64,000 nucleotides of DNA from Fibrobacteria bacterium. GTDB lineage: Bacteria; Fibrobacterota; Fibrobacteria; UBA11236. Position 1 is the first letter of the stretch. Each line of letters begins with the position of its first letter. The stretch covers positions 53,354-117,353 of the forward strand of contig DATENA010000271.1 of the NCBI GenBank assembly GCA_035275285.1, read 5' to 3'. Shown in pieces: positions 3,358-52,204 of this stretch. A model generated the notes under the pieces. The model saw only the letters and a list, made by a program, of their open reading frames with translations, was not told the origin of the DNA and searched no databases. Made by a program: the position numbers and the translations under genes.

Positions 3358-3433
3358 TGGAGCGGGTTAAGAGACTCGAACCCTCGACCTTCTCCTTGGC
3401 AAGGAGATGCTCTACCAACTGAGCTAAACCCGC
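3358..3433 (-). tRNA. tRNA-Gly (anticodon GCC)
   Basis: The reverse complement reads GCGGGTTTAGCTCAGTTGGTAGAGCATCTCCTTGCCAAGGAGAAGGTCGAGGGTTCGAGTCTCTTAACCCGCTCCA (76 nt, CCA encoded). Anticodon loop is TTGCCAA, and the T-arm is GGTTCGAGTCT. Confidence 0.9.
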
Positions 3434-23487: not shown

Positions 23488-24563
23488 AGATCCATACCCG
23501 CCACGTGCTCAAGGCGTTCCTGGGCCTTCTGCTCCTGACCGTGATCTCCATCGTGGTGATCTTCGTGGTCATCGATTTCGTCGGCAACAGCAAGATCTGG
23601 CTGACCCGGACCCCGAAAGAGGTGTTCCGCTATTACCTGGACTTCCTCCCGCACATCCTCTACCTGATCCTGCCCATCGCCATGCTGCTGGCTTCCGTCT
23701 TCTCCATCGGGAACATGTCCCGGAACCTGGAGCTCGTGGCCCTGCGCGCGGCCGGCGTCCCGGTGGTGCGCATTTTGGCGCCGATCCTCCTGTTCGGATT
23801 GATCGCCAGCGGGGTGATGTTCTGGTTCGAGGACGCCGTCCTGCCGGATGCGAACCACCGCCGCTACGAGATCAACGAGCCCAAGTCCCAGGACGGGGAC
23901 CAGGGCGGCGATCCCCTGGAGAAGTTCAATTACCTCTTCACCGCCTCGGACGGCATGGTGCTGTATTTCGATTTCTACTCGGGCCACCGCAACACCGGGC
24001 AGGGCATCACCGTCATCACCCAGCCCAAGCACGGGCCCATGGAAATGCGCATCGACGCCCGTTCCATGGCCTGGGACAAGGATCGCTGGCTGCTGCGGGA
24101 CGGCACCAAGCGGGTCTTCTACAAGGGCGTGCTGGAATCCTTCCCGTTCAAGGAACTGCCCTTTCCGGAGTTCAAGGACAAGCCCATGGACCTGCTGGAC
24201 GACCGCTCCTATCCGGAGGAGATGGGCATCCAGGAACTGGATCGCCGCATCGCCATCCTCAAGCGGTCCGGGGAGTCTTCCCGCGTCCTGGAGACGGAGC
24301 GCCACTTCCGCTTTTCCAGCAGCCTGGTGAACCTGTTCATGGCCCTGATAGGCACCGCCATGTCCGTCCATACGGTGAAATCGGGGTTGGCCCGCAACTT
24401 CGGCGTCGCCCTGCTGATCACCTTCCTGTATTACGTGGCCCTGCGCCTGGGCCTGGTCATGGGCCAGAACGGAAGCCTGTCCCCGGTGATGGGCGCCTGG
24501 CTCGGCAATCTCATCTTCGCGCCCCTGGGATTCCTGCTCCTCTGGAAGGCGGCCCGCGTGTGA
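23484..24563 (+). CDS. lptG: LPS export ABC permease, LptF/LptG family (second paralog)
   Basis: MKIHTRHVLKAFLGLLLLTVISIVVIFVVIDFV. The ATG at 23484 overlaps the upstream stop in an ATGA. 359 aa. Confidence 0.8.
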   Translation: MKIHTRHVLKAFLGLLLLTVISIVVIFVVIDFVGNSKIWLTRTPKEVFRYYLDFLPHILYLILPIAMLLASVFSIGNMSRNLELVALRAAGVPVVRILAPILLFGLIASGVMFWFEDAVLPDANHRRYEINEPKSQDGDQGGDPLEKFNYLFTASDGMVLYFDFYSGHRNTGQGITVITQPKHGPMEMRIDARSMAWDKDRWLLRDGTKRVFYKGVLESFPFKELPFPEFKDKPMDLLDDRSYPEEMGIQELDRRIAILKRSGESSRVLETERHFRFSSSLVNLFMALIGTAMSVHTVKSGLARNFGVALLITFLYYVALRLGLVMGQNGSLSPVMGAWLGNLIFAPLGFLLLWKAARV

Positions 24564-26341
24564 GCGGGCCCTGGTTTTTCCTCGCGGGCGCGTTCGCCGG
24601 CTTGGGATTCCTGGGCGGAAACTGGCGGCTGGCTTTCGTACCCGCGGCGGCCTGCCTCGTGCTCGCCTGGACCGGCGGCCGCGCCGCCCTGGGCCGGAAG
24701 AAAAACGGCGGATCGCCCACCCGCAAGACCTCAGTGGTGCCCCAGCAAGCCTTTCCGGAACCCTCCACGGAGGAGCGCCGCCAGGACACCACCCGCGCGT
24801 TCCTCAAAGGCGATATGGCCTTGGTGGGCAGCGAGGCCCAGGCCCGGGAAGCCCGCAAGCTGGCCCTGCGCGAACTGGAAGACAACATCGACGGCGCCAT
24901 CTTCGACGGGCTCGCGCTCCTGAAGCAGGCCGTTCCGGGCGGGCACACCTACGCGGTGCTGTTCCCGGGGAAGAACGACGGGCTCTACCTGCGCGCCTGG
25001 ATCACGGACAGCGGATCCGTGATTGCCGGGGCCGTGCTGAACAGCAACCAGGGCCTGGTGGGGCAATTGAACAAGGACGGCGTGCGCCGGGTGCTGGAAG
25101 GCGACATCGTGGCCGATTCCGCCCAATTGCACTACTACTCCGGCCACGACGGCGTGCGCTCCCTGGCCGGCGTCCCCATCCTGGTCAAAGGCGTCCGGCG
25201 CGGGGCGGTCATCGTCGACAGCCTGCGGGAGAACGCCTTCGACGCCCGGACCATCGAACGCCTGGATTCCCTGGCCAACCTGCTGGGGCATCTGGCCTAC
25301 CACGCCTACATGGCTTTCGAGCATGCCTATCACAAGGAGCAATTGGCGGCCCTGACCAGCTACCAGCGCAAATTCCTGGAGAACATGTCGGTCGAGAACA
25401 TCGTCACCCACGTGCAGAATTACATGGCCGAATGCCTGGAGGGCGATCGCTTCCTGGTGGTGGAGCGCGTTTCCCGCCAGGGCGACGACGCGCGCATCGT
25501 GAGCTGCATCGGCGCGGACGACAAGGAGATGCAGGGTCTCGGGTTCCGCCTCTCGGAGAAAGGCCTGGCGGCCCTGGCCTTCGAGAAGGAGCAGATCATC
25601 AACCGCGCGTTCCCGCCCACGCCGCACGTGCCCCGCTTCAGCCCCAGGGAAAAGGCCCACGGGCGCATGGCCAGCCTGCTGGCCGTGCCGGTGCCCACGG
25701 ACCAGGGCGTGGACATGGTCCTGATGGTGGAATCCGTCCGCCCCCGGCGTTTTTCCGAGCACCACCAGAACCTGCTTTCCACCATCGCCCGCGCGGCCGG
25801 CTTCGCCCTGTCCCGCGCCCGCCTCTACCAGGAGAAGGAGCAGCTCGCCAGCCGCGACGGGCTCACCGGGGTGGAGAACCACCGCACCTTCCAGGAGCGT
25901 TTCCTCAACGAGATCCTGCGCGCCCAGCGGTACGCTCACCAACTGGCCGTGATGATGATGGACATCGATCTCTTCAAGAAGGTGAACGATACCTACGGCC
26001 ATCCGGTCGGCGACCAGGTCCTCAAGGAAGTGGCCCGGATCATCTCCCAGAACATCCGCGCGGGCACCGATCTGCTGGCGCGCTACGGCGGGGAGGAGTT
26101 CGTGGTCATGCTGGCGGATACGGACCGGACCCGGGCGGGAGAGACCGCGGAGCGGATCCGCGAGAGCATCGCCGCCAAGGTCTTCGAATCCGGCACCGTG
26201 CGCTTCCAGGTCACCATGAGCATCGGCGGGGCCATCTACCCTTCCGATTCCCGCCACGGGCGGGAGATCCTGGAGAAGGCGGACAAGGCTTTGTACCGGG
26301 CCAAGGAGACGGGGCGGAACAGGCTGGTGTTCTACAATTAA
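24560..26341 (+). CDS. Membrane-anchored GAF-GAF-GGDEF diguanylate cyclase
   Basis: GTG start overlaps the lptG stop (GTGTGA). Two N-terminal TM helices, two GAF-like domains, and a C-terminal GGDEF domain with an intact RYGGEEF active site. Confidence 0.85.
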   Translation: MSGPWFFLAGAFAGLGFLGGNWRLAFVPAAACLVLAWTGGRAALGRKKNGGSPTRKTSVVPQQAFPEPSTEERRQDTTRAFLKGDMALVGSEAQAREARKLALRELEDNIDGAIFDGLALLKQAVPGGHTYAVLFPGKNDGLYLRAWITDSGSVIAGAVLNSNQGLVGQLNKDGVRRVLEGDIVADSAQLHYYSGHDGVRSLAGVPILVKGVRRGAVIVDSLRENAFDARTIERLDSLANLLGHLAYHAYMAFEHAYHKEQLAALTSYQRKFLENMSVENIVTHVQNYMAECLEGDRFLVVERVSRQGDDARIVSCIGADDKEMQGLGFRLSEKGLAALAFEKEQIINRAFPPTPHVPRFSPREKAHGRMASLLAVPVPTDQGVDMVLMVESVRPRRFSEHHQNLLSTIARAAGFALSRARLYQEKEQLASRDGLTGVENHRTFQERFLNEILRAQRYAHQLAVMMMDIDLFKKVNDTYGHPVGDQVLKEVARIISQNIRAGTDLLARYGGEEFVVMLADTDRTRAGETAERIRESIAAKVFESGTVRFQVTMSIGGAIYPSDSRHGREILEKADKALYRAKETGRNRLVFYN

Positions 26342-27219: not shown

Positions 27220-27375
27220 TCCGGACCGGGGTGCCGCAAGCCTTGGGCGCCGGCCCGCCAATAGGTATATTGGCTCTGCTCATCCTGGAAGGCGCAGACC
27301 TCACGCAATTGACGCGAGCTGAACCCCGCCAGGACGAAAGTAGCAACGGTAGGCATCAACTCAATGTGCCGTGTC

Positions 27376-27475
27376 GAAGTCTGCCGCCAACCGGGATGAG
27401 CACCTCCTTTTAGAACATCCCGGTTGGCGCGCTGACCGGGATGAGCACCCCCTTCTAGAACATCCCGATCAGCGC
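27376..27475. repeat. Two tandem, near-identical hairpin units (13-15 bp stem, 17-nt loop) in the 630-bp region upstream of the hybrid kinase gene
   Basis: Unit 1 is GCCAACCGGGATG-agcacctccttttagaa-CATCCCGGTTGGC. Unit 2 is GCGCTGACCGGGATG-agcacccccttctagaa-CATCCCGATCAGCGC. They share the CCGGGATG / CATCCCGG core. Confidence 0.75.
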
Positions 27476-27641: not shown

Positions 27642-29579
27642 ATGGCGCTGGAAAGACGGAAACTGCTGCTTGTCGAGGATGAGGCCTTGGTGGCCCTGGA
27701 TTTGAAAAGGCGCTTGGAGGGAATGGGGTTCGAAGTCGCCGGGCAGGCGACCACGGGAGAGGAAGCCATCCAAAAGGCCCTGGCGATCCAGCCTTCCCTG
27801 GTCCTGATGGACATCCGGTTGGGGGGCCTGGTGGACGGGATCGAGGCCACGGAAATCATCCGCCGGCGCCTGGACGTTCCCGTGGTCTATCTCACGGCCA
27901 ATTCGGATGAAGCCACCTTGCGCCGCGCGCGCATCACGGAGCCCCATGGATTCGTCCTCAAGCCCATCCGGGATCGGGAATTGCGCATCGCCATCGAGAT
28001 GGCCCTGTACCGGTTCAGGGCCGAGGCCGCCATGCGCGAGAGCCGGGAGTGGTTTTCCGCCATGCTCAGCACCGTCAGCGAAGCCGTCATCGCCAACGAT
28101 AAGGACGGCGCCGTGCGGCATATGAACCATGCGGCCGAGCGATTGACGGGGTGGAGGGAAGAGGAGGCCCGGGGCCGGCCGCTGACCGAGGTGGTCCGTT
28201 TCCTGGATGAGTCCGCGCGCGCGCCGGCCCAGGAATCGGCTTCCGGGACCAGGATCATGGACCGCACCGTGGTGACCGCCCGGGACGGGGCCGTCCGCGC
28301 CGTCGAAGAGCGCTTCGAAACCGTGCGCGGCCTGGCGGCGGACGTGGAAGGAGGCGTGTCGGCCTTCCGCGACGTGAGCGAACGCCGCAACCTGGAAAGG
28401 CAACTGGCCCAGAAGCACAAGATGGAAGCCATCGGCCGGCTGGCGGCCGGGGTGGCCCACGATTTCAACAACCTGCTCACGGCCATCATCGGATACAGCA
28501 ACCTGGCCTTGCTGAAAGCCGGCGAGCGGGACGCGACGCGCGAAGACCTCTCCCAGATCAAGGAAGCCGGGGAAAGGGCCGCGGAACTGACCCAGCAATT
28601 GCTGGCCTTCAGCCGGCGGCAGATGCTGACTCCCACCGTGGTGGATCTGGGCGTGATGACCCGCAACATGGAAAAGCTCCTGCGGCGGCTCATCGGCGAG
28701 GACGTGGAGATCCTCACCAGCGGCGACCAGCCGCTCTGGGCGGTGATGGCGGATCTGGGCCAGATGGAACAGGTGCTCGTGAACCTGGCCGTGAACGCCC
28801 GCGACGCCATGCCGCAAGGCGGCAAGCTGGTCGTGGACACGCGGAACTTCCGCCTCGACGCGAACGCCGTGCCGCCCCAGGAGGACATGACCCCCGGGGA
28901 CTACGTGGTGCTGGGCGTCGCGGATACGGGCAGCGGGATGGACGAATCCACCCGTTCCCATCTGTTCGAACCCTTCTTCACCACCAAGGCCCCCGGAAAG
29001 GGCGCGGGGCTGGGACTGGCCACCGTGTATGGGATCGTCAAGCAAAGCGACGGTTATCTCACCGTGCAGTCCGAGCCGGAGCGCGGGTCCGTGTTCAAAA
29101 TCTTCCTGCACGCCACCTTCGAACCTGCCCGCCAATCGGCAGGCCCCCGGCCCCAGGCTCCGGCGCCGCGCACGGAGGGCAACGAGACCATCCTGGTGGT
29201 GGAGGACGAAAAAGCCGTGCGCAACTTCCTGCGGGATTCCCTGGAACGCAGCGGATACCGGGTGCTGGAGGCGGGTTGCGGGCAGGAAGCCCTGGAAAAG
29301 GCCGCGGAGGCGGCTTCGCGGGGTGGAACGCTCCCGGGCAACGAGGGCGAGATCCGCCTGCTGCTGACCGACGTGGTGATGGCCGGCCTGAACGGGCAGG
29401 AATTGGCGGAGGAGGTGCTCGGCCTGCTCCCCGGAGTCAAGGTGCTCTACATCTCGGGGTATACGAACCAGGGCATCGTCAACCGGGGTTCCCAGGGCGG
29501 CGGGCCGGACTTCCTGCGCAAACCCTTCACGCCCATGGAACTGTCCCGCAAGGTGAGGAACGTCCTGGACGGGCAGTGA
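27642..29579 (+). CDS. Hybrid sensor histidine kinase (REC - PAS - HisKA - HATPase_c - REC)
   Basis: N-terminal receiver domain (LLLVEDEALVALDL ... LMDIRL), a PAS region, an H-box (AHDFNNLLTAIIGYS), ATPase G-boxes (GSGMD, GLGLA), and a C-terminal receiver (ILVVEDEKAVR ... LLLTDVVM). Confidence 0.88.
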   Translation: MALERRKLLLVEDEALVALDLKRRLEGMGFEVAGQATTGEEAIQKALAIQPSLVLMDIRLGGLVDGIEATEIIRRRLDVPVVYLTANSDEATLRRARITEPHGFVLKPIRDRELRIAIEMALYRFRAEAAMRESREWFSAMLSTVSEAVIANDKDGAVRHMNHAAERLTGWREEEARGRPLTEVVRFLDESARAPAQESASGTRIMDRTVVTARDGAVRAVEERFETVRGLAADVEGGVSAFRDVSERRNLERQLAQKHKMEAIGRLAAGVAHDFNNLLTAIIGYSNLALLKAGERDATREDLSQIKEAGERAAELTQQLLAFSRRQMLTPTVVDLGVMTRNMEKLLRRLIGEDVEILTSGDQPLWAVMADLGQMEQVLVNLAVNARDAMPQGGKLVVDTRNFRLDANAVPPQEDMTPGDYVVLGVADTGSGMDESTRSHLFEPFFTTKAPGKGAGLGLATVYGIVKQSDGYLTVQSEPERGSVFKIFLHATFEPARQSAGPRPQAPAPRTEGNETILVVEDEKAVRNFLRDSLERSGYRVLEAGCGQEALEKAAEAASRGGTLPGNEGEIRLLLTDVVMAGLNGQELAEEVLGLLPGVKVLYISGYTNQGIVNRGSQGGGPDFLRKPFTPMELSRKVRNVLDGQ

Positions 29580-29624
29580 GGCCGCCGCTTCACGCAAGCC
29601 CGATGCAGGAGGAGAGATGCGCAT

Positions 29625-31169
29625 TTGCTGAAGCGTGAGCAATGGATGGATCTGGCGCGGAAACTGGATTGGAACTTTTCCTATGTCGAGGAAAAGGATG
29701 TCTATCCGGAGGAAGCCGCGGGAACCCCCTGGCTCCCCCAGCAGGCCTGGGCCGCTTGGGACGAACCCTATCGCACCTCCTACTCGGAGTACGTGAGGGG
29801 CCAAGCCGCCAAGGAAGCCTCGGTCAAGGCGGTCCGGGAGGCCATCGGCAGGCCGGAAGACTTCGAGCGCCTGCCGCGCCCGTGGCTCAGCGCGCTCAAG
29901 CTCCATGGCGCCACCTTGCCCCTGGCGGAATTCGCGGCCGTGATCGGGAACCTCCGGGCCGGCCGCTTCGCGCGCGCTTCGGCATGGCGCACCACGGCGG
30001 CTTTCGGGGCCCTGGACGAATTCCGCCATACCCAGATCCCTTTGCTGCTCATGCACGGACTGGTGCCATGGGACCGGCAATTCGACTGGACGCACAGGTT
30101 CTTCCATACCGGCAACTGGGTCGCCGTGGCCGGCCGCCATCTCGCGGATGAGCTCCTGCTCTGTTCCAATCCCATCGAATTCGCGGTGGGCACCAACTTC
30201 GTCTTCGAAACCGGCTTCACCAACATGCAATTCATCGGCTTGGGCTCCCTGGCGCGCCGGACCGGGGACCGGATGTTCGAACAGATGGTGAACAGCATCC
30301 AGACCGATGAGGCTCGGCATGCCCAGATCGGCCGGCCGGTGCTGGAAATCCTGAGGAAGCATGATCCGGCGTATGCGCAGCGCCTGGTGGATAAATGGTT
30401 CTGGCGGAGCTGGCATTTCTTCGCCGTGGTCACCGGTTTCGCCATGGATTATCTGACGCCCCTGGAGCACCGGACCGCCTCCTTCAAGGAATTCATGGAA
30501 GAATGGGTGCTGGATCAGTTCCAGCGCTCCCTGGACGAGGCGGGCCTGCGGAAGCCCTGGTATTGGAACGAATTCCTCGCATCCCTCGATCATTACCATC
30601 ACATGGTCTATGCGAGCGCGTACACCTATCGCGCCACCGTCTGGTTCGACATGGCGGTACCCTCGCCGGCCGAGCGGGAATGGCTGGCGGAGAAATACCC
30701 CGCGTCCTGGAGCCAATACGCCCCCATCTGGGATCGCATCGATCAGCGCTGGAAGGAAAGCGGACCGGGGGTGGAATGGCATACCCACGGCGCGACCCCG
30801 GTGGGCTTCTGCGACCTCTGCCAGATGGTGCTGTGCGCGGGCAGCCCGATGGCCAATTCGGCCCGGGTGGTGGGGCACGGAGGCCGGAAATACATCTTCT
30901 GCTCCGATCCTTGCAAGTGGATCTTCGAGGCGGAGCCGGAAAGATACGCTTCCCACAAGGACGTGGTGAAGCGGATCCTCTCCGGCGAGGCCCCGGCCAA
31001 CCTGCTCGAACTCATCAAGCATTTCGGATTGACCGCCGACGAGTGGGGAAAGGACGCGTACCGGGGAGGGTACCCCTGGATGCGCGGGACCGCGGGAAGA
31101 AAGAACGGCGGGGATGGCGACGGGGAGGGACGCTTGAACGGACGTCCCCAGAAGGTCCGGAAGGACTGA
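29625..31169 (+). CDS. tmoA: Soluble diiron monooxygenase hydroxylase alpha subunit (toluene-4-monooxygenase TmoA / alkene monooxygenase-like)
   Basis: Diiron ligand motifs DEFRH and TDEARHAQ, plus FETGFTNMQFIGL. Collinear matches to TmoA include WNFSYV, WDEPYRTSY, MDYLTPLEHRTASFKEFMEEW, KPWYW and the C-terminal KYIFCSDPCKWIFEAEPERY. A TTG at 29625 preceded by AGGAGGA is the likely start; an ATG at 29646 is the alternative. Confidence 0.85.
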   Translation: MLKREQWMDLARKLDWNFSYVEEKDVYPEEAAGTPWLPQQAWAAWDEPYRTSYSEYVRGQAAKEASVKAVREAIGRPEDFERLPRPWLSALKLHGATLPLAEFAAVIGNLRAGRFARASAWRTTAAFGALDEFRHTQIPLLLMHGLVPWDRQFDWTHRFFHTGNWVAVAGRHLADELLLCSNPIEFAVGTNFVFETGFTNMQFIGLGSLARRTGDRMFEQMVNSIQTDEARHAQIGRPVLEILRKHDPAYAQRLVDKWFWRSWHFFAVVTGFAMDYLTPLEHRTASFKEFMEEWVLDQFQRSLDEAGLRKPWYWNEFLASLDHYHHMVYASAYTYRATVWFDMAVPSPAEREWLAEKYPASWSQYAPIWDRIDQRWKESGPGVEWHTHGATPVGFCDLCQMVLCAGSPMANSARVVGHGGRKYIFCSDPCKWIFEAEPERYASHKDVVKRILSGEAPANLLELIKHFGLTADEWGKDAYRGGYPWMRGTAGRKNGGDGDGEGRLNGRPQKVRKD

Positions 31170-31180
31170 AGGACCGGGAG

Positions 31181-31435
31181 ATGCTGGTCCCCCTGTACGG
31201 ATTCATGCGCGGCGACTGCCTGGGACTGATCGTCCTGGTGCACGATACGGATCCGGTGGCCCACATCGCCGAGACCCTGGCCCAGGCCGCGGGCATGCGG
31301 GTGGTCCCGCGGCCGGGAGGCTCCGTGTACGCGGACGGCAAGCGCTTGGATCCGGGGCTCAGCGTGGCCCAGGCGGGACTGACCGCCTTGGACCGGGTGG
31401 ACGTGATCCCGGAGGAGCACGTGTGGCCTGGATGA
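31181..31435 (+). CDS. tmoB: Monooxygenase small subunit, TmoB-like (gamma)
   Basis: 84 aa. IVLVHDTDPVAHIAETLAQAAGMRVVPRPG ... GLTALDRVDVIPEE aligns with the TmoB pattern (VVVDLNDSMDQVAEKVAYHCVNRRVAPREG ... GLNPTEVIDVVFEE). Confidence 0.7.
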   Translation: MLVPLYGFMRGDCLGLIVLVHDTDPVAHIAETLAQAAGMRVVPRPGGSVYADGKRLDPGLSVAQAGLTALDRVDVIPEEHVWPG

Positions 31436-31752
31436 AAGCCGAAGGCATGGGGGATCTGTGGGACGGGGAAATGCGTCCGTGCCTGGTGCTGGGCATGCGC
31501 GTGCTGGTCCTGAAACAGGATGGGGTCGTCCATGCCTATGCGGACGCCTGCGCGCACCTGAAGGTCCCCCTCAGCGAAGGCCGCTTCGAAGGCGGCGTCC
31601 TCACGTGCCGCGCCCACGAATTCCGGTACGATGCCGCCACGGGCGCGGGACTGAACCCCAGGACGGCCAGGCTGGAACCCTATGCGGCGAAACTGGAAGG
31701 AGGCCAGGTGTGGATAGACCTGACCCTGGGAACGCCTCCGGCGCCTCCGTGA
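31432..31752 (+). CDS. tmoC: Rieske [2Fe-2S] ferredoxin component, TmoC-like
   Basis: Rieske CxH...CxxH motifs (CAHLKVPL and CRAHEFRYD). About 106 aa. ATGA overlap with the tmoB stop. Confidence 0.8.
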   Translation: MKAEGMGDLWDGEMRPCLVLGMRVLVLKQDGVVHAYADACAHLKVPLSEGRFEGGVLTCRAHEFRYDAATGAGLNPRTARLEPYAAKLEGGQVWIDLTLGTPPAPP

Positions 31753-32045
31753 CGGCCAAGGAAGGAAGCGGCGCGATCCGGGGACCGGGCCCGGTGCTGA
31801 TCGCCGGGGAAGCCTCCCAGGCGGTGCTGGAGGCGATGAAATCCCTCAACCGCAACCTCTCCGTGCTGGATAGGGGCTCCTATTGGCGCGTATCCTCCGC
31901 TTCCGGCTGCCGGCTCACGCGCGCGGCCGTCGAAAAGCGGCTCGGGAAACCGTTCCTCATGCCGGGCGATCTGGAAGCGCTGATGCCGTCCTTCTCGGGA
32001 CGTTTCCGCGTCACCGAAGAAGAGGCCCGGTGGGAGGAGGGATGA
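31749..32045 (+). CDS. tmoD: Monooxygenase effector/coupling protein, TmoD/MmoB family
   Basis: 98 aa. LTRAAVEKRLGKPFLMPGDLEALMPSFSGRF aligns with the TmoD [30 protein letters not shown]. The GTG start overlaps the tmoC stop in a GTGA. Confidence 0.7.
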   Translation: MTAKEGSGAIRGPGPVLIAGEASQAVLEAMKSLNRNLSVLDRGSYWRVSSASGCRLTRAAVEKRLGKPFLMPGDLEALMPSFSGRFRVTEEEARWEEG

Positions 32046-33019
32046 CGCCGCGCCGGACCTGGTGGAACCTGGAGAGTTCCGCGCGCAAGCCTTCGGACTA
32101 CGAGATCGCCTCCACGGATCTGCTGTACTATCCCAAGCTCGGCTTCGAAGTCAGGACCCCGCTGGAGGAGTGGCACCGCAAATTCCAAGCGGGGTCGCCC
32201 CTGGCTTGCGCCGATTGGGATCGCTTCCGCGATCCCGCCGAGCTGACCTATTCGCGTTACGTAGAAGCGCGCCGGGACAAGGAAATCTACGTGGACGGCC
32301 TCTTCAACGCCGCCGAGGCGACCGGTCACGATCATAAGCTGTCCGGAGAATGGCTGCAGCTGATGGATCGCCTCCTCTGCCCGTTGCGATACCCCTGGCA
32401 CGGGCTGCAGATGGCCTCCTCCTATCTCGGCAGCATGGCCCCGGGCGGGCGCATCGCCATCTGCTTCCTGCTGCAGACCGGCGACGAGATCCGCCGGATC
32501 CAGCGCATCGCCTACCGCATGCGGATGCTGATGGAAACGCGGCCGGGCCTGGGCGCGGAAAGCCGGTATTGCTGGGAATGGGAACCGGCATGGCAACCCC
32601 TGCGGCGCGCCATCGAGCGCCTCCTGGTGACCTACGACTGGGGGGAAGCGTTCGTGGCGCTGAACCTTTCCCTGAAGCCGGCGCTGGACGAAATGTTCCT
32701 GATCCATTTCGCCAGGGCCGCGGCCCGTTCCGGGGACGAGGTGCTGGGAAAGCTGTTCCTCTCCTTCCACGAAGATTCCCGCTGGCAAAGGGAGTGGAGC
32801 GCGGCCCTGGTGCGGATGCTGGTGGCCGGATCCCCCGAGAACGCGAAGTCGCTCCGGGAATGGATCGCCCGCTGGCATCCCATCGCCGAAACGGCCGCCC
32901 TGGCCTTCGCGCCCGCCCTGTGCGCCCCGGGACAGGACGCGGATTTCATCCGCGACGGGATCCGGGGCGCCTTGGGCGTGGCCGGCATGATGCCCAGGGA
33001 GGCGGTCCATGCGGCCTGA
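32042..33019 (+). CDS. tmoE: Monooxygenase hydroxylase beta subunit, TmoE-like
   Basis: 325 aa, all-helical, of typical beta-subunit size and in the position after the effector. The ATG at 32042 overlaps the tmoD stop in an ATGA. It lacks the full diiron ligand set, as expected for a beta subunit. Confidence 0.65.
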   Translation: MTPRRTWWNLESSARKPSDYEIASTDLLYYPKLGFEVRTPLEEWHRKFQAGSPLACADWDRFRDPAELTYSRYVEARRDKEIYVDGLFNAAEATGHDHKLSGEWLQLMDRLLCPLRYPWHGLQMASSYLGSMAPGGRIAICFLLQTGDEIRRIQRIAYRMRMLMETRPGLGAESRYCWEWEPAWQPLRRAIERLLVTYDWGEAFVALNLSLKPALDEMFLIHFARAAARSGDEVLGKLFLSFHEDSRWQREWSAALVRMLVAGSPENAKSLREWIARWHPIAETAALAFAPALCAPGQDADFIRDGIRGALGVAGMMPREAVHAA

Positions 33020-34730
33020 GGCGGGCATTCCGGAAAGCTCGGAAAGCGAGGCGCGCTTCCGCACCATGGCGGACTGCGCCCCCGTGCTCATTTGGATGGC
33101 CGGCGTGGACGCGGAATGCGTCTTCTTCAACCGGGGTTGGCTGGAGTTCACGGGCAGGCCCCTGGAGGCGGAACTGGGCGTGGGATGGGCGGAAGGCGTC
33201 CATTTCGAGGACTTCCAGAATTGCATGCAGGCGTACCTGGGCTCTTTCTCGGCCCGCAAACCCTTCCGCATGGAATACCGCATGCGGCGCGCGGACGGCC
33301 GGTTCCGCTGGGTGCTGGATACGGGCGTGCCCCGGTTCGAAACCGGCGGGATCTTCGCGGGATTCATCGGCTCCTGCATCGACATCACGGACATCCGCGA
33401 GGCCAACGAGGCCCTGTCGCGCAACGCCGGCCAGTTGGAGATACGGGTGCAGGACCGCAACCGCGAGCTGGAGGCCTCGAACCGGGAGTTGGAACGGTTC
33501 AACCGGTTGATGGTGAACCGGGAGCTGAAGATGATCGAGCTCAAGAAACAGGTGAACGCCCTGTCCGCGGAACTGGGACGCGCGGAGCCTTACGGGATCC
33601 CGGCGGACAAGGTTCCGGGCGGCGCGGTCCCGGAAGGGAACGCCCCGGAAGGAAAGGACGCGGCGGAAGAACTGGCCGCGCAAAGGGCCGCGGCCTTGAA
33701 CCTGGCGGGAGACGCCGAAGCCGCGCGCCAGAAAGCCGAGAAGGCCCAGGCCCAGTTCCGGGCCCTGCTGGAGGCCGCCCCGGACGCCATGGTGGTGGCG
33801 GATCGACGGGGGGATATCGTGCTCATCAACGGGCAGACCCGCCGCCTGTTCGGCTTCGAGCGGGAGGAATTGCTGGGCCGATCCGTGGAGCTGCTCATGC
33901 CGGAAAAGCCGCAAGGGGAGGGGAGGCAAGGCGGCCTTTTCAACCAGGCCAGGCTCAAGGAGATGGGAAGCGGCTACGAGGTGACCGCCCTCCGCAAGGA
34001 TGGGGGAGGCTTTCCCGCGGAAGTGTCCCTGAGCCCCATGGAGTCCGAGGACGGCATCCTCGTCATCGCCGCCATCCGGGACATGACGGAGCGCAAGAGC
34101 GCGGAGGAATCCATCCGCAAGTCCCTGCTCGAAAAGGAAGCGCTGCTCAAGGAGATCCACCACCGCGTCAAGAACAACCTGCAGATCATCTCCAGCCTGC
34201 TGCGCTTGCAGGCCGAACGCATCGTGGATAAAAGGGACCTGGCCATGCTCCGCGAGAGCGAGGAACGGGTGAATTCCATGTCCCTGATCCATGAAATGCT
34301 CTACCAGAGCAAGGACCTGGCGCGCGTGAATTTCGGGGGCTACGTCCGCAATCTCACCGCGGAGCTGCTCCAGACCTACGCCACCGGTTCGGCCCGCATC
34401 GATCTGGACCTGCAGGTGGAAACCCTGGAACTGGACATCAACCGGGCCATCCCCTTGGGCCTTATCATCAATGAACTGGTTTCCAACGCGCTCAAGTACG
34501 CTTTTCCCGGGACCCGCTCCGGCACCCTTTCCGTCCGGCTCGCCTCCGCCTCGGGGGAATTGACGCTGGAAGTCCGCGACGATGGCATCGGGCTGCCCCC
34601 GGATTTCCAGGAGCGCCGCAAGTCCTCCCTGGGCCTGCAGATAGTCGAATCCTTGTGCCGGCAAGTGGGCGGGCGGCATGCGTTCGAGGGGGAGAAAGGC
34701 ACGCGCTTCCGGATGAGCGCCCCGATCTGA
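33009..34730 (+). CDS. Cytoplasmic PAS-PAS sensor histidine kinase, HisKA_2/HWE-type
   Basis: Two PAS-like regions (LIWMAGVDAECVFFNRGW..., MVVADRRGDIVLINGQTRRLFGF), then an H-box IHHRVKNNLQIISSLLRLQ and an ATP-binding domain. No receiver or TM segment. Its start overlaps the tmoE 3' end by 11 nt. Confidence 0.85.
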   Translation: MRPEAGIPESSESEARFRTMADCAPVLIWMAGVDAECVFFNRGWLEFTGRPLEAELGVGWAEGVHFEDFQNCMQAYLGSFSARKPFRMEYRMRRADGRFRWVLDTGVPRFETGGIFAGFIGSCIDITDIREANEALSRNAGQLEIRVQDRNRELEASNRELERFNRLMVNRELKMIELKKQVNALSAELGRAEPYGIPADKVPGGAVPEGNAPEGKDAAEELAAQRAAALNLAGDAEAARQKAEKAQAQFRALLEAAPDAMVVADRRGDIVLINGQTRRLFGFEREELLGRSVELLMPEKPQGEGRQGGLFNQARLKEMGSGYEVTALRKDGGGFPAEVSLSPMESEDGILVIAAIRDMTERKSAEESIRKSLLEKEALLKEIHHRVKNNLQIISSLLRLQAERIVDKRDLAMLRESEERVNSMSLIHEMLYQSKDLARVNFGGYVRNLTAELLQTYATGSARIDLDLQVETLELDINRAIPLGLIINELVSNALKYAFPGTRSGTLSVRLASASGELTLEVRDDGIGLPPDFQERRKSSLGLQIVESLCRQVGGRHAFEGEKGTRFRMSAPI

Positions 34731-47097: not shown

Positions 47098-47173
<76 letters not shown>

Positions 47174-47269: not shown

Positions 47270-47869
47270 TCAACCCTTATGCGCGGCATGCTTGGGCAAG
47301 CGGAAATGGATTAAGGTGCGGTCCAGGGTGTCCCTGAACCTGAGATCCGCTTTTTCATGCATGAAAAGCGTCAGCCGGACCATGCGCTTGATGCGGGCCG
47401 GCCCGGCGACTCCCGCCTTGGCATTGCCGTCTTTGTAATAGAACTCGTCCACGGAGCTGGCTTCCACCGCGCCTCCGCGGATTTTGGACAAGCGCATGGA
47501 AGGCTTGCCGGTATCGAGGAAGTCGATCTCCACCCGGTCGGAGAGCATGCGCACCGCCCGGTCCGAGGGCTTTCCGCGGAACAGGACCTGCACCATGTAG
47601 GATTCGTATTCGCCTTTGTCCTGGCGGTCCAGGAGCACTTGCACCACCTGGCTGGAGGGATCATCGATGGTTTCCCCCGGCTTGGGAAGGAAGGTGCGGA
47701 AGCTGCGCGGCCGGACTTTCGGGGGCGCATGGTCCACCGCACCGGGCGCGGGCTTGGGAGCGGCGGGCGTATCGGTTTTGCCGTCCCCGGCGCGGGCGAA
47801 GCCGGCAGGCAGGATGGACAAAGCCGCCAGGATCCAAAGGGCCCTGAAGGGCTTTGGGATTAGGGCCAT
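47270..47869 (-). CDS. Hypothetical secreted protein
   Basis: Internal ATG at 47869 gives MALIPKPFRALWILAALSILPAGFARA (signal peptide), then a proline-rich linker and a beta-rich C-terminal domain. Confidence 0.5.
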   Translation of the reverse strand: MALIPKPFRALWILAALSILPAGFARAGDGKTDTPAAPKPAPGAVDHAPPKVRPRSFRTFLPKPGETIDDPSSQVVQVLLDRQDKGEYESYMVQVLFRGKPSDRAVRMLSDRVEIDFLDTGKPSMRLSKIRGGAVEASSVDEFYYKDGNAKAGVAGPARIKRMVRLTLFMHEKADLRFRDTLDRTLIHFRLPKHAAHKG

Positions 47870-48047
47870 CGTCGATACTCCGCGAAAGTCGAATCCGTCC
47901 GAAAAATCCCGAGGGAGTCCGATTATATACATTTTTAGGTGCGGGGAGGCTAGGAAGCCCGGCTCGGCTTGGAGCCCGGGCGCGCAGGCATGGCGGGACG
48001 AAAAAACCGCCGCCCCGCAACAAGATGATTACACTGCAACGGGACCC

Positions 48048-48812
48048 ATGGGCATAGCGATTCAAAACATGTTCGACGGCATCGCCCGCCGCTACGACTT
48101 TCTCAACCACTTCCTCAGCGCCGGACGCGATAAGGCCTGGCGCCGCAAGGCCGCCGGCTGCCTGCGGGGAGGCGGCTCGCTCAAGGTATTGGATCTATGC
48201 GGCGGCACCGGGGACTTCTGGAAAACCTGGCATGACCTGCACTCCGGATCCGCGGGAGGAACCCGCGGGACCCGGCCGGGAGCGGAGGATCAAAAATCCC
48301 AAGCCGTAATCGCGGATTTCTCCTTGGGCATGCTCCTGCAGGCGCGCAAAAAGTTCCGCTCGCCCGCGGCGGAAGGAGAGGCCGCGGCCTTCCCCGCACA
48401 CGGACCCGCCCTGGTGCGCATGGACGCCCTCAAGCCTTGCTTCAAGGAAGGAAGCTTCGATGCCGTCCTGTGCGCGTACGGCATGCGCAACCTGGATTCC
48501 ATCGCATCCGGCATCGATGAGATAGGACGATTGCTCAAGCCGGGAGGGATGTTCGTCACCTTGGAATTCTTCCGGCCCACCACGGCGTTCACGCGCCTCT
48601 TCTACAACGGCCTGGCCCCGCTTTCCATCCCGTTCCTGGGCTGGTTCTTCTCGTCGCGCCGGCAGGCCTACGCGTACCTGGTGCAATCCATCCGGGGGTT
48701 CAAATCGGTGGGGGAGTACCGCGAATGTTTCCGGGACCGCGGCTTCCGCGACGTGGACGTCATCCCCTGCGACTTCGGCATTTCCCACATCGTCACCGCA
48801 GTGAAAGGCTAG
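48048..48812 (+). CDS. ubiE: Demethylmenaquinone/ubiquinone C-methyltransferase UbiE/MenG
   Basis: N-terminal FDGIARRYDFLN signature of UbiE and SAM motif I VLDLCGGTGD. There is a 25-aa insertion after motif I. Confidence 0.8.
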   Translation: MGIAIQNMFDGIARRYDFLNHFLSAGRDKAWRRKAAGCLRGGGSLKVLDLCGGTGDFWKTWHDLHSGSAGGTRGTRPGAEDQKSQAVIADFSLGMLLQARKKFRSPAAEGEAAAFPAHGPALVRMDALKPCFKEGSFDAVLCAYGMRNLDSIASGIDEIGRLLKPGGMFVTLEFFRPTTAFTRLFYNGLAPLSIPFLGWFFSSRRQAYAYLVQSIRGFKSVGEYRECFRDRGFRDVDVIPCDFGISHIVTAVKG

Positions 48813-48818
48813 GCGCGC

Positions 48819-49373
48819 ATGGGGCGTTACGTCATCGGAGTGACCGGAGCCTCCGGCGCCGTCTACGCGGACCGGCTGGTTTCCCACCTCAAGGATCTGG
48901 ATCAGGAAGTGCATCTGGTCCTCACCGACATGGGCAAGAAGGTGTGCGCCTACGAGGGCTTCCCGGACCTGGCCAAGCGGGCCGACAGGGTGTACGACAA
49001 CAGGGACTTCTTCGCGCCGATTTCCAGCGGCTCTTATCTCCACCAGGGAATGGCCGTCGTGCCCTGTTCCATGGGGACCCTGGGAAAGATGGCCCACGGC
49101 ATAGGGGACTCGCTCCTGACCCGCGCCGCGGACGTTTGCCTGAAGGAGAAGCGGAAACTGATCATCGTGCCCCGGGAAACCCCCATGAGCGCGTTGCACC
49201 TCCAGAACCAGAAGACCCTGGCCGAGTACGGCGGCGTCATCATTCCCGCCAATCCGTCCTTCTACCACAAGCCGGCGACCATCGAGGAGCTGGTGGATAC
49301 GGTTCTGGCCCGGGTGCTGGACCACCTCGGGCTGGAGCGGCACCAGGTGGGGAAACGCTGGAAAGATCCCTAG
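48819..49373 (+). CDS. ubiX: Flavin prenyltransferase UbiX (or MqnL-like)
   Basis: YVIGVTGASGAVYA ... AVVPCSMGTLGKMAHGIGDSLLTRAADVCLKEKRKLIIVPRETP, matching the UbiX/Pad1 flavoprotein signature. 184 aa. Confidence 0.85.
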   Translation: MGRYVIGVTGASGAVYADRLVSHLKDLDQEVHLVLTDMGKKVCAYEGFPDLAKRADRVYDNRDFFAPISSGSYLHQGMAVVPCSMGTLGKMAHGIGDSLLTRAADVCLKEKRKLIIVPRETPMSALHLQNQKTLAEYGGVIIPANPSFYHKPATIEELVDTVLARVLDHLGLERHQVGKRWKDP

Positions 49374-49624
49374 CACACCCATGCGCTCCGGGCCTTCCCC
49401 GGGGCCGGAAACGCCATATTTGGTTTTCATTCCGAAAACGACCGGAACGCGCGCCTTCCGGGTCCGTTTCCATAACACCTTGTTCATTGGATAGTTATGG
49501 GAACTTTGGAATCCAAGAGTTTTCAACCGGCATCGTAAATGCCCCGGTTGATGTCCCATGCTGAAAACGCCTGCCCAAGAGGTGGATTGGGGGGTAGATT
49601 GGAACAGGGGATGGAGAGCGGCAT

Positions 49625-50464
49625 ATGGTGAACATCTTCGAATACATGGACTACCGGCAGTTCCTGCAGGAGTATTACACCGAACGCAAGGCCCAGAATC
49701 CCGCTTTCTCCTACGAGGTGTTCGCCCGCAAGGCCGGGTTCAAATCCAAGGGCTTCCTCCACCATATCCTGACGGGCAAACGCAACCTGTCGAAGAACGC
49801 CATGTTCGCCATCTCGACGGCCATGGGATTGGATGAAAAGGCCTTCTCCTTCTTCCAGAACATGGTCGCGTTCAATCAGGCCAAATCCCAAGGCGAGAAG
49901 GCTTTCTTCTTCAAGAAGCTCATGGAAACGAGCCCCAAAAGCCCCGCCAAGCTCCTGCAGGAAGGCTTTTACGAATTCTATTCGCATTGGTATTACAACA
50001 CCGTTCGGGAATTGATTACCTTGGTACGGTTCAAAGAGGACTACGCGCTTTTGGGAAGCCTGCTCAACCCGCCTATTTCCGCCGCCCAGGCCAAGAAAGC
50101 CGTGCAGCTCCTGCTCCAATTGGGGTTGGTGGAAAAGACCCGCACCGGATACAACGCCACCCATCAGGCCATCACCACGGGCGACGAGGCCCAAACCATG
50201 GCCACGCGGGACTTCCACGGCCAGAACATGGACCTGGCCAGGACGGCCATGGACACGGCGGATCCGGAGGAGCGCGATCTGTCCTGCCTGATAGTCGCCC
50301 TGCCGGAAGCGGGATTCCAATCCTTGAAATCCGAGATCCAGGCCTTCCGCAAGAAGCTCATGCGCATGGCGGACGGAATGACCGGCCCCAACCGCATCTA
50401 CCATATCAACTTCCAGTTTTTCCCCACCACCAAGAACCTGGCGGGCAAAGAGGGAGGGTCATGA
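49625..50464 (+). CDS. TIGR02147-family protein (Fibrobacter succinogenes major paralogous family-like)
   Basis: N-terminus MVNIFEYMDYRQFLQEYYTERKAQNPAFSYEVFARKAGFKSKGFLHHILTGKRNLS matches my recollection of the family's opening block (IFxYxDYRxFLxDYY...FSYRxFxxKAGFxS). 279 aa. Confidence 0.55.
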   Translation: MVNIFEYMDYRQFLQEYYTERKAQNPAFSYEVFARKAGFKSKGFLHHILTGKRNLSKNAMFAISTAMGLDEKAFSFFQNMVAFNQAKSQGEKAFFFKKLMETSPKSPAKLLQEGFYEFYSHWYYNTVRELITLVRFKEDYALLGSLLNPPISAAQAKKAVQLLLQLGLVEKTRTGYNATHQAITTGDEAQTMATRDFHGQNMDLARTAMDTADPEERDLSCLIVALPEAGFQSLKSEIQAFRKKLMRMADGMTGPNRIYHINFQFFPTTKNLAGKEGGS

Positions 50465-52182
50465 AAAGGAGCTTCCTTTCCCGGGCTTTCCGCCCGCGGG
50501 CCCTCGCCTGGACGGGAGCCGCTTTGCTCCTCGCCTGCGGTTCGGACCGGCTCGCCTCGTCCGAAATCGGGAACCCTCCCAAACGCGGCACGGTCTTGGG
50601 GATCATCTACAAGGAGAACGGGGAACCCGCGCCCGGGACGCGCGTGGGGCTGCTCCGCACCAACTACGATCCGGTCCGGGACACGGGATCCCGCATCCGG
50701 TTCGATACCACGGACGAGGAAGGGGCCTTCTCGATCGATAGCGTGGATTCCGGCAGCTACAATATCCAGGCCCTCCAGCTTTCCGCCCGCACCCGGCTGC
50801 TCATCCAGGGCGTGGAGGTGCGTTCCGACACCACCGTGGCCTCCGCGCGCCGGTACCTGCAGGAGCCCGGCACCATCTCGATCCTGATCCCGGACTCGGT
50901 TCCGACCAAGAATGCCTATGTCTACCTGCAGGGAACCGATGTATACGCGCCCACCTCATCCTTGAAGGGGGAATCCCGCCTGGTCCTTCTGGATTCGGTG
51001 CCCGCGGGCATGAGTCCCGAGATCACCTACCGCTCTTCCCCCGCGGACTCCGCGGCGCCGGGCAACCGCGTCCGCCTTTCCGAAGGCGTGAACGTGATGT
51101 CCGGAGACACCGTTCCGGCCTCGATCCTGCAGGAATGGCCTTACTCCTCCCGTATCTTCCTCAACACCACTTCCACGGGCGCGAACATGAAGACCTTGCC
51201 CGTCCACGGCTTTCCCGCCCTCGTGCGCCTTGGGCCGGGCGCTTCGGTCTTCGCCGCGGCGGCCGAAGACGGCCGCGACGTCCGCTTCACGAAACCGGAC
51301 GGGGCGTCGCTCCGCCATGAGATCGAAAGCTGGGACAGGGCCGCTTCCCAGGCGGCCATCTGGGTCTGGCTGGATACGGTCCGGCACAACGACAGCGGCC
51401 AGTATATCCGCATGTACTGGGGCAACCCCTCCGCTCCTGCGCCCGCGATGAAGCCGGTGTTCGACACGGCTTCCGGCTATCAGAGCGTCTGGCACATGGA
51501 GGCCATGAAGGCGGGGAGCCCGCCCACGCTCAGGGACCATTCCCCTTCCGGAAACACGCTTTCGGCCGGGGGCGGACTGTCCGCGGCGAACCTGACCGCG
51601 TCGCCCATGGGAACGGGCCTGGAACTGAGCGGGGATTCCACCACCCTGTACACGTCCAAGAGTTTCGAAAGTCCCCGGTTTTTCACCATTTCCTTGTGGT
51701 TCAAGACCGCCACCAGCGGCGGGGGAAAGCTGATCGGATTCGGGGAGGACCCCTTGATGGTCGATACGTCCCGGGACCGCCATCTCTGGATGGACACCTT
51801 GGGCAAGGTCCATTTCGGCGTCTATTCCAAGGTGGGCAAAGGGCCGCCGGACATCCTCAGCGGCTCCAAGGCCCTCAATGACGGCCAATGGCACATGGTG
51901 GCCGGGGTGCTCTGGCCCGGAGGCATGGTGCTTTACGTGGACGGGAACAAGGCAGAGGAGACTCCGGACGTGACCTCCGCGCAAGCGTACCCCAGGGGAT
52001 ATTGGAAGCTGGGTTTCGATTTCAAATTCTACGATTGGCCCTTCGCCCCCAAGGATCTGTATTTCAAAGGCGTCCTGGACGAGGTGCGCGTGACCAACAA
52101 GTCGCTTCCCAAGGAGTGGTTCAAACTGGCCTACGAAAGCCAAAAGCCGGACAGCCGTTTCCTGCGTTTCGATAAACGCTGA
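50461..52182 (+). CDS. Lipoprotein with a carboxypeptidase-regulatory-like Ig domain and a C-terminal LamG/concanavalin-like domain
   Basis: ATG at 50461 in an ATGA overlap with the TIGR02147 gene stop. Signal/lipobox ALLLACGS, then GTVLGIIYKENGEPAPGTRVGLL (CarbopepD_reg-like). The C-terminal roughly 200 aa resembles a LamG/DUF2341-type jelly-roll (GGGKLIGFG ... WHMVAGVL ... LYVDGN). Confidence 0.6.
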   Translation: MKRSFLSRAFRPRALAWTGAALLLACGSDRLASSEIGNPPKRGTVLGIIYKENGEPAPGTRVGLLRTNYDPVRDTGSRIRFDTTDEEGAFSIDSVDSGSYNIQALQLSARTRLLIQGVEVRSDTTVASARRYLQEPGTISILIPDSVPTKNAYVYLQGTDVYAPTSSLKGESRLVLLDSVPAGMSPEITYRSSPADSAAPGNRVRLSEGVNVMSGDTVPASILQEWPYSSRIFLNTTSTGANMKTLPVHGFPALVRLGPGASVFAAAAEDGRDVRFTKPDGASLRHEIESWDRAASQAAIWVWLDTVRHNDSGQYIRMYWGNPSAPAPAMKPVFDTASGYQSVWHMEAMKAGSPPTLRDHSPSGNTLSAGGGLSAANLTASPMGTGLELSGDSTTLYTSKSFESPRFFTISLWFKTATSGGGKLIGFGEDPLMVDTSRDRHLWMDTLGKVHFGVYSKVGKGPPDILSGSKALNDGQWHMVAGVLWPGGMVLYVDGNKAEETPDVTSAQAYPRGYWKLGFDFKFYDWPFAPKDLYFKGVLDEVRVTNKSLPKEWFKLAYESQKPDSRFLRFDKR

Positions 52183-52204
52183 GGGGAATGCTACTTTTCC
52201 GCCC

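Follow-up and report, generated by a model that had tools for sequence, protein, structure and literature searches.

Organization of the locus

The window analysed here, a 64-kb stretch of DNA from a soil or groundwater metagenome-assembled genome (MAG) named 'Fibrobacteria bacterium', harbors at positions 27642–34730 a cluster of seven genes, in which five genes predicted to encode a soluble diiron monooxygenase (SDIMO) of the TMO family are bracketed by the genes of two cytoplasmic histidine kinases, termed HK1 and HK2. All seven are located on the forward (+) strand; their products and Pfam matches are as follows.

27642–29579, + strand: HK1, hybrid histidine kinase of 645 amino acids (aa); Response_reg, PAS, HisKA, HATPase_c, Response_reg
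29625–31169, + strand: hydroxylase α-subunit, 514 aa, TTG start; Phenol_Hydrox (192 bits) and YHS
31181–31435, + strand: TmoB-like (γ) hydroxylase subunit, 84 aa; TmoB (46 bits)
31432–31752, + strand: Rieske-type [2Fe-2S] ferredoxin, TmoC-like, 106 aa; Rieske (57 bits)
31710 or 31749 to 32045, + strand: effector/coupling protein of the MmoB/DmpM family; MmoB_DmpM (61 bits)
32042–33019, + strand: hydroxylase β-subunit, 325 aa; Phenol_Hydrox (218 bits)
33009–34730, + strand: HK2, soluble kinase of 573 aa; PAS_3, PAS, HisKA_2, HATPase_c
33042–33413, + strand: N-terminal PAS_3 sensor domain of HK2 (residues 12–135), the part of HK2 that is kept beside the operon throughout the clade described below

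The seven proteins are exact matches to the NCBI entries HKP97661–HKP97667 (Third Party Annotation of the same MAG), and an independent public gene call on the identical DNA yields the same genes at this locus. The initial annotation had described a diiron monooxygenase operon in tmoABCDE order at 29625–33019, directly preceded by a hybrid kinase of REC-PAS-HK-REC architecture (REC, receiver; HK, histidine kinase core) and overlapping a PAS-PAS HisKA_2/HWE-type kinase. Coordinates, strand and domain content agree with this description.

HK1 and the α-subunit gene are separated by a gap of 45 nt, the α-subunit and TmoB-like genes by 11 nt. The TmoB/Rieske and effector/β junctions are ATGA overlaps, and the Rieske and effector genes overlap as well, with two candidate starts for the latter: GTG at 31710, which is preceded by AGGAGG 6 nt upstream, and GTG at 31749, which gives the GTGA overlap noted before. 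The β-subunit gene overlaps HK2 by 11 nt, and HK2 thereby occupies the position held by tmoF in canonical operons; the next gene, encoding peptide deformylase (Def), is convergent. Scanning of the locus for sigma-70 promoters gave no promoter-like site, and the count of terminator-like structures was at background, with none above background between the seven genes. A single transcription unit is therefore likely, and 27642–34730 probably represents one co-transcribed unit of seven genes.

Hydroxylase subunits and active site

The α-subunit matches the solved α-chains of ToMO and T4MO over its whole length (392 bits). As stated in the initial annotation, it carries the motifs DEFRH and TDEARH, and two E...EXXH motifs supply the six diiron ligands Glu104, Glu134, His137, Glu197, Glu231 and His234, which are all intact and match the ligands of TouA and TmoA in the alignment. 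Together with Thr201, Asn202 and Gln228, these ligands are invariant in 65 out of 65 α-subunits of the clade to which the enzyme belongs, and Gln204 and Phe205 are likewise invariant. At seven further positions, which we take to line the pocket or channel of T4MO, the clade displays residues of its own (Pro141, Thr192, Phe188, Phe105, Ala232, Thr138 and Leu211). Thr138, Thr192 and Ala232 are the residues found in XamoA, where TmoA and TouA carry Gly, Leu and Ser. Since Leu192 is the state in the sister groups, Thr192 looks convergent with the alkene enzyme.

Contrary to the initial annotation, the C-terminal motif is not TmoA-like. Instead, the YHS region (window 30810–30914) contains a full Cys4 site of the pattern CxxC...CxxxC, formed by Cys396, Cys399, Cys426 and Cys430. 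These residues are invariant in the clade and in its sister groups, whereas the second cysteine pair is lost in TmoA and TouA; with respect to this site the protein is closer to phenol hydroxylase than to T4MO. Because phenol hydroxylase structures show a zinc site of this kind, the Cys4 site probably has a structural role and does not carry electrons.

In the 106-aa ferredoxin the Rieske ligands are visible as CAH(x17)CRAH, following the CxH...CxxH pattern. The order α, TmoB, Rieske, effector, β is that of the TMO family and is kept in loci of the clade, with the TmoB-like gene at the same position. Judged from sequence, the five genes encode a complete set of hydroxylase (α, β and TmoB/γ), Rieske ferredoxin and effector protein of a TMO-family SDIMO.

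Selection on the locus was assessed by the ratio of non-synonymous to synonymous substitution rates (dN/dS) against one syntenic relative (L085, α-subunit 79% identical). The ratio is 0.10 for α, 0.18 for β, 0.16 for HK1 and 0.20 for HK2, and ranges from 0.10 to 0.21 over six of the seven genes, whereas saturation of dS prevented its calculation for the effector gene. These values indicate purifying selection on the six genes. Two relatives (α-subunits 79% and 84% identical) are fully syntenic with the window, sharing LptF/G, GAF-GGDEF, cytidine deaminase, HK1, ABCDE, HK2, Def and MR_MLE. Low dN/dS in combination with synteny suggests that the unit is vertically maintained and functional. A recent horizontal acquisition was considered and rejected, since the GC content at the locus is not anomalous and the locus is syntenic in these relatives.

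These data also bear on the idea that the locus is a decaying, non-functional remnant of a tmo operon that has lost its reductase. All that speaks for it is the absence of a sixth gene and, in two clade loci (L086 and L114), the loss of the ferredoxin gene. Against it stand the dN/dS values, the invariance of the diiron ligands over 65 sequences from many phyla, the preserved overlaps of start and stop codons and the lack of frameshifts in the window, so that a remnant is hardly credible.

A clade of uncultured bacteria

Relatives of the α-subunit with identities of 67–84% are found in metagenomes, and 270 relatives are present among the GTDB species representatives. A neighbour-joining tree displays three groups: TmoA and TouA together with XamoA, the enzyme of Mycobacterium sp. 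ELW1 and sequences of Bacillus, Scytonema and Chloroflexia; an actinobacterial group; and a separate clade including the protein of the window. The latter is 58–84% identical to members of its clade, compared with about 40% for TmoA, TouA, XamoA and the ELW1 enzyme. The clade is composed of MAGs only and comprises at least eight phyla, with Acidobacteriota as the majority, Myxococcota, Bdellovibrionota, Planctomycetota, Pseudomonadota (Burkholderiaceae and others), Verrucomicrobiota, Chloroflexota and, with the present genome, Fibrobacterota. Metagenomes from soil, peat and groundwater contain it in abundance, and there is no cultured member among the loci recovered. Clade-wide counts given below refer to 152 loci (2.0 Mb), of which 98 extend at least 1.2 kb beyond the β-subunit gene and 83 include both flanks.

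All-versus-all clustering of open reading frames (ORFs) revealed only ABCDE and the kinases as common to the clade, and conserved catabolic neighbours were rejected on this basis. Aldo-keto reductases, a cytochrome c peroxidase-like gene, DUF3300 and others occur only in acidobacterial sub-groups and at variable positions.

Absence of a linked reductase

In agreement with the initial annotation, no reductase gene is found near the operon. Three TMO-family reductases (from a Chloroflexia locus outside the clade, L077, from Xanthobacter autotrophicus Py2 and from Mycobacterium sp. ELW1) were used as queries in tblastn and phmmer; as a positive control, they detect each other in phmmer at E-values of 1e-39 to 1e-66. 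In the 64-kb window, neither these searches nor Pfam scans of the other ORFs revealed a reductase with Fer2, FAD_binding_6 or NAD_binding_1 domains. No further phmmer match was obtained among 8,385 ORFs from 90 loci and the window, and no tblastn match in 80 further metagenome loci. A TmoF-type reductase is present in none of the 98 clade loci with sufficient sequence after the β-subunit gene, in none of the 152 loci as a whole, and in none of eight loci annotated with Pfam. The NADH oxidoreductase that forms the sixth gene of TMO-family operons is thus lacking from the window and from the 152 clade loci. The only true TMO-family reductase in any fetched locus is the Pfam-verified one of L077, which was also the sole match of a relaxed motif (regular expression) search.

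By contrast, the reductase directly follows the β-subunit gene in the canonical controls, xamoABCDEF of X. autotrophicus Py2 and the operon of Mycobacterium sp. ELW1. The statement of the initial annotation that known tmo, tou and xamo operons end in a reductase is borne out by these controls and by a 2025 SDIMO review, according to which TMO operons consist of six genes with the reductase as the last (PMC11825192).

Outside of the clade, several TMO-family operons, including those of cultured hosts, also lack a TmoF-type reductase within 10 kb: L074–L076 (Scytonema), L064 (Streptomyces humicola), L080 (Bacillus benzoevorans) and the Acidimicrobiia loci L059–L072. Unlinked reductases may therefore be commoner in the TMO family than the six-gene textbook operon implies. 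Within the clade, the Rieske ferredoxin gene is absent from L086 (11535–12055), where the TmoB stop overlaps the effector start, and from L114, where B lies near 2458 and D near 2748. In L089 (11751–12347) a Rieske-MmoB fusion protein of 198 aa is called. In the clade, the electron-transfer part of the operon is evolutionarily labile.

One explanation would be a non-canonical electron supply, in which an FNR-type reductase is dispensed with and the Rieske protein is reduced by another partner, for example through a respiratory or low-potential ferredoxin route. The absence of a reductase near all 152 loci, in which other components are kept (L086 and L114 being without the Rieske gene), is in line with such a supply, as is the fixation of the reductase as the sixth gene in the XamoA and ELW1 operons. 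Moreover, L089 carries genes for a bc1-like Rieske protein and cytochrome b divergently upstream, and a motif scan for Pyr_redox_2-type ferredoxin reductases near the operons gave only an NDH-2-like ORF (L010) and unrelated matches, which were rejected. However, nothing is conserved in the place of the reductase except the kinase. Unlinked or shared reductases are common for oxygenases depending on Rieske ferredoxins, and T4MO is active in Escherichia coli without tmoF. Furthermore, the branches of Scytonema, S. humicola, B. benzoevorans and Acidimicrobiia mentioned above indicate that unlinking is widespread and not special to the clade of the window. A non-canonical supply is accordingly regarded as quite unlikely, and the 'unusual electron supply' proposed in the initial annotation would most simply mean a reductase encoded elsewhere in the genome.

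Co-inherited sensor kinases

HK2 is built from a PAS_3 domain, a coiled-coil/low-complexity linker, a PAS domain, HisKA_2 and HATPase_c. The scores for HisKA_2 (100.5 bits), HWE_HK (26.4 bits) and HATPase_c (55 bits) as well as the H-box HRVKNN identify it as a kinase of the HisKA_2/HWE type. An assignment as PhyK (NCBIfam NF051872) was rejected at 145 bits against a cutoff of 750, the likeness being limited to the kinase core. The N-terminal REC domain of HK1 resembles PhyR-type REC domains; as CckA, HK1 was rejected with 418 and 328 bits against the NCBIfam cutoff of 1000, the likeness being one of architecture only. Among solved structures, no relative of the PAS_3 domain with a known ligand was found, the sole match being the structural-genomics PAS domain 3mr0 (33 bits).

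In 77 of the 83 loci with both flanks, a gene adjacent to the operon encodes an N-terminus that is 45–69% identical to residues 12–135 of HK2. Only one out of 107 matches to this type of PAS domain is not adjacent to an operon, and 15 loci outside the clade gave no match. The PAS_3 kinase is located downstream on the same strand, usually with a 4-nt overlap with the β-subunit gene, in the non-acidobacterial part of the clade, and divergently upstream in most Acidobacteriota. It is the PAS_3 domain that is kept, in combination with HisKA (37 members), HisKA_3 (5), HisKA_2 (2) or a sigma-54 activator (1). Pairwise distances of the PAS domain and the α-subunit correlate with r = 0.935, a value reached by none of 2000 Mantel permutations. 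The kinases are co-inherited with the operon.

The departure from the canonical six-gene layout emphasized by the initial annotation thus stands, but it is not peculiar to this genome: the lack of a linked reductase and the adjacent kinase are the norm for a large uncultured clade and not a quirk of one genome. The initial annotation had also named a finding that would overturn it, namely an α-subunit from an ordinary characterised tmo/tou clade with a kinase as common neighbour. This holds by half: the kinase neighbour is indeed common, but in an uncharacterised clade distinct from the ordinary tmo/tou enzymes.

A hybrid kinase resembling HK1, REC-PAS-HK(-REC), is situated beside the PAS_3 kinase in L004, L062, L085, L086, L087, L089 and the P0037 locus. 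The gene order is HK1-ABCDE-HK2 in the window and L085, ABCDE-HK2-HK1 in L004, L086, L087, L089 and the P0037 locus, and HK1-HK2-ABCDE in L062. Retention of the hybrid kinase through these rearrangements argues for a functional linkage of both kinases. Other partners are found elsewhere. The acidobacterial sub-clade L010–L016 has a canonical pair of a divergent PAS_3-HisKA_3 kinase and a REC-GerE (NarL-type) regulator. In L090 (13309–16127), genes for a single-domain receiver and a diguanylate cyclase of REC-GGDEF architecture come after the PAS_3 kinase, so that cyclic di-GMP (c-di-GMP), in place of a DNA-binding regulator, would be the linked output there. No monooxygenase is located near P0126 (L082/L083, 8001–8822), a stand-alone PAS_3 protein of 185 aa that is encoded beside a small receiver gene.

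The kinase linkage raises the alternative of enzyme-coupled sensing, close to the hydroxylase integrated into a signalling circuit that the initial annotation had envisaged. Here the monooxygenase would belong to a signalling module instead of opening a catabolic pathway: ethylene or another volatile hydrocarbon would be converted to a product sensed by the PAS_3 kinase, or the kinase would monitor turnover, and the output would be c-di-GMP signalling or other kinases, with transcription of the operon not being the primary target. Several observations fit this idea. No downstream catabolic genes are conserved in the 152 loci and the context in the window is purely housekeeping; the kinase overlaps the β-subunit gene in the tmoF position; outputs in the sub-clade of the window are kinases and receivers without DNA-binding domains, and L090 has REC-GGDEF; L057, L084 and L094 include a hybrid kinase with an ETR1_N domain in the same tight cluster; and L086 and L114 keep hydroxylase, effector and kinases without a ferredoxin gene. 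On the other hand, kinases beside oxygenase operons under their control are well known (TodST, TmoST, MmoS/Q), one sub-clade has a NarL-type DNA-binding partner and one member a sigma-54 activator fusion. An O2-activating enzyme of six polypeptides would also be a costly sensor, and the T4MO operon is likewise not known to have adjacent downstream pathway genes. Enzyme-coupled sensing is therefore considered unlikely. It is more economical to assume a dedicated control of the operon by the kinases, because a PAS kinase with a NarL-type regulator occurs in one sub-clade and a PAS/sigma-54 activator fusion in one member.

Hints to the substrate

Two lineage-restricted gene contexts bear on the substrate. 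In L057, L084 and L094 the order is REC, PAS_3 kinase, ABCDE, REC, REC and a hybrid kinase with an N-terminal ETR1_N domain of the ethylene-binding type (127–130 bits against a cutoff of 27); in L084 the genes overlap by 4 nt. The ETR1_N motif ACGTGH matches what we take to be the copper-ligand Cys/His pair of plant ETR1. In the literature searched, no report ties bacterial ethylene receptors to SDIMOs. In the L010–L016 sub-clade (Terriglobia/Bryobacterales), a microsomal-type epoxide hydrolase (EHN and Abhydrolase_1) is encoded directly downstream of the operon on the same strand, after which come genes for an enoyl-CoA hydratase-like protein and a cytochrome c. The genes are located as follows.

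L057 13689–16130: hybrid kinase with ETR1_N domain
L084 13336–16221: hybrid kinase with ETR1_N domain
L094 near 8784: hybrid kinase with ETR1_N domain
L010 13969–15300: epoxide hydrolase
L014 18987–20273: epoxide hydrolase
L015 and L016, 13927–15165 and 17927–19195: epoxide hydrolases

The epoxide hydrolase neighbour suggests an epoxide product, and the remodelled pocket together with both contexts weakly favours an alkene over toluene. An alkene-to-epoxide reaction is thus plausible from these hints. Either gene as a general feature of the clade was rejected, since each occurs in one sub-lineage. A more far-reaching proposal would be that the clade represents a widespread, previously unrecognised system for oxidising or sensing alkenes, possibly ethylene. 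In this case a reductase-less diiron epoxidase would be hard-wired to a PAS kinase relay, turnover or product would be read as a signal, in some lineages with an ETR1_N-type ethylene-binding kinase alongside, and the enzyme would not simply feed a catabolic pathway. We consider this proposal improbable, albeit not negligible.

Comparison with known systems

The closest characterised arrangement is found in TmoABCDEF of Pseudomonas mendocina KR1 and TouABCDEF of P. stutzeri OX1, which share with the window the order of the five genes, the six diiron ligands and Thr201, Asn202 and Gln228. The window differs from both by its distant α-subunit in a separate clade, by the lack of a tmoF-type reductase, by pocket residues specific to its clade and by the full Cys4 site. 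XamoABCDEF and the ELW1 operon (isoA in RefSeq) have the same order of the five components, but the respective enzymes are not the sister group of the window's clade in the tree, and in both operons a reductase and an aldehyde dehydrogenase directly follow the β-subunit gene, while the clade of the window possesses neither of them.

PAS-containing kinases genetically linked to hydrocarbon oxygenase operons are known from TodS/TodT, TmoS/TmoT and MmoS/MmoQ and are thought to couple expression to substrate or redox state. Kinases of the TodS/TmoS type are single polypeptides of about 970 aa in which a receiver lies between two PAS-kinase modules. HK1 and HK2 were rejected as members of this type: HK1 contains two receivers but a single kinase core, and HK2, likewise with a single core, lacks a receiver. 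In contrast to the double kinases TmoS and TodS, the kinases of the window are small soluble PAS kinases. Compared with TodS, TmoS and MmoS, HK2 is a 573-aa PAS_3-PAS-HisKA_2 protein whose gene overlaps that of the β-subunit, and most of its relatives in the clade are single-PAS kinases of 370–410 aa. Unlike in TodST-type pairs, the partner in the sub-clade of the window is a REC-PAS-HK-REC hybrid and not a DNA-binding regulator.

The 2025 SDIMO review nowhere mentions histidine kinases; its TMO subgroups A and B are uncharacterised MAG enzymes (PMC11825192), and their phyla match the make-up of the window's clade plus the actinobacterial sister clade, a tentative mapping drawn from the taxa. 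In the literature searched, a reductase-less or PAS-kinase-linked TMO-family architecture is not described. The enzyme family and kinase-linked oxygenase operons are thus already known, whereas the five-gene, reductase-less architecture of a clade linked to a PAS_3 kinase appears to be undescribed.

Proposed function

Taken together, the most probable explanation, which we hold with fair but not high confidence, is a working TMO-family monooxygenase with a reductase encoded elsewhere and a dedicated, co-inherited PAS kinase system. The enzyme would activate O2 at the diiron centre with electrons delivered by its own Rieske ferredoxin, which in turn would be reduced by a shared or housekeeping reductase encoded elsewhere in the genome, and would hydroxylate or epoxidise a small hydrophobic substrate. 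HK2 may detect substrate, product or redox state and phosphorylate the N-terminal receiver of HK1, and this relay may control how the unit is expressed, or some other output of the cell.

Several points weigh against this explanation. The DNA covered comprises the 64-kb window out of a contig of 171,655 bp and 10-kb flanks of the other loci, and no reductase was identified there, so that a supply in trans is an assumption. In L086 and L114, even the Rieske ferredoxin gene is absent. No DNA-binding response regulator is linked to the operon in the window's own sub-clade, and the outputs linked to it elsewhere vary (another kinase, single REC proteins, REC-GGDEF in L090), so that transcriptional control of the operon stays a proposal. 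The PAS_3 domain is also not exclusive to these operons, P0126 being 61% identical in an unrelated PAS-REC context. Finally, the trees are of the neighbour-joining type only, and the pocket positions are assumed ones, after T4MO structures.

TMO-family monooxygenases serve as markers and catalysts for oxidising hydrocarbons and pollutants. The present analysis adds a large branch of the family with a different, stable architecture, in which a PAS sensor kinase is inherited along with five enzyme genes and a linked reductase is lacking. This branch will escape annotation pipelines and marker-gene surveys that require tmoABCDEF, and a surrogate reductase will be necessary to express its enzymes in a heterologous host. 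For work on the substrate of the enzyme, the conserved kinase offers an experimental handle. If the hints to alkenes or ethylene are true, the hosts could belong to a poorly understood soil sink for plant-derived volatile alkenes.

Genomic context and additional features of the window

The remainder of the window consists of housekeeping and cell-envelope genes, as the initial annotation had it. Pfam scans of the ORFs identified LptF/G, LigA, a PALP enzyme, MiaA, TatD, a TrmFO-like GIDA protein, PurH, PurC, Def, PmbA/TldD, SppA, UbiE, UbiX, UbiA and Der. Two genes upstream of HK1, a GAF-GAF-GGDEF protein (24560–26341, +) is encoded, whose gene is found in synteny in both of the closest relatives and may be linked to the kinase relay. 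A small SRP RNA gene (27292–27389, +; Rfam RF00169, 42.8 bits with a gathering score of 40) is situated between HK1 and the gene for cytidine deaminase. It is directly followed by two tandem 45-nt units (27385–27474, +), each forming a hairpin with a 14-bp stem and a 17-nt loop. Between the two copies the stems show compensatory changes; the fold has a z-score of -6.9, and a T-rich stretch follows. These hairpins may be terminator or processing hairpins of ffs, or a regulatory element upstream of HK1. Two tRNA genes were identified by Rfam at 3361–3433 (-) and 47101–47173 (-), and a set of ubiquinone/menaquinone-related genes (47601–53065), encoding UbiE, a UbiX-type flavoprotein and UbiA, is interrupted by a gene for a DUF4423 protein.

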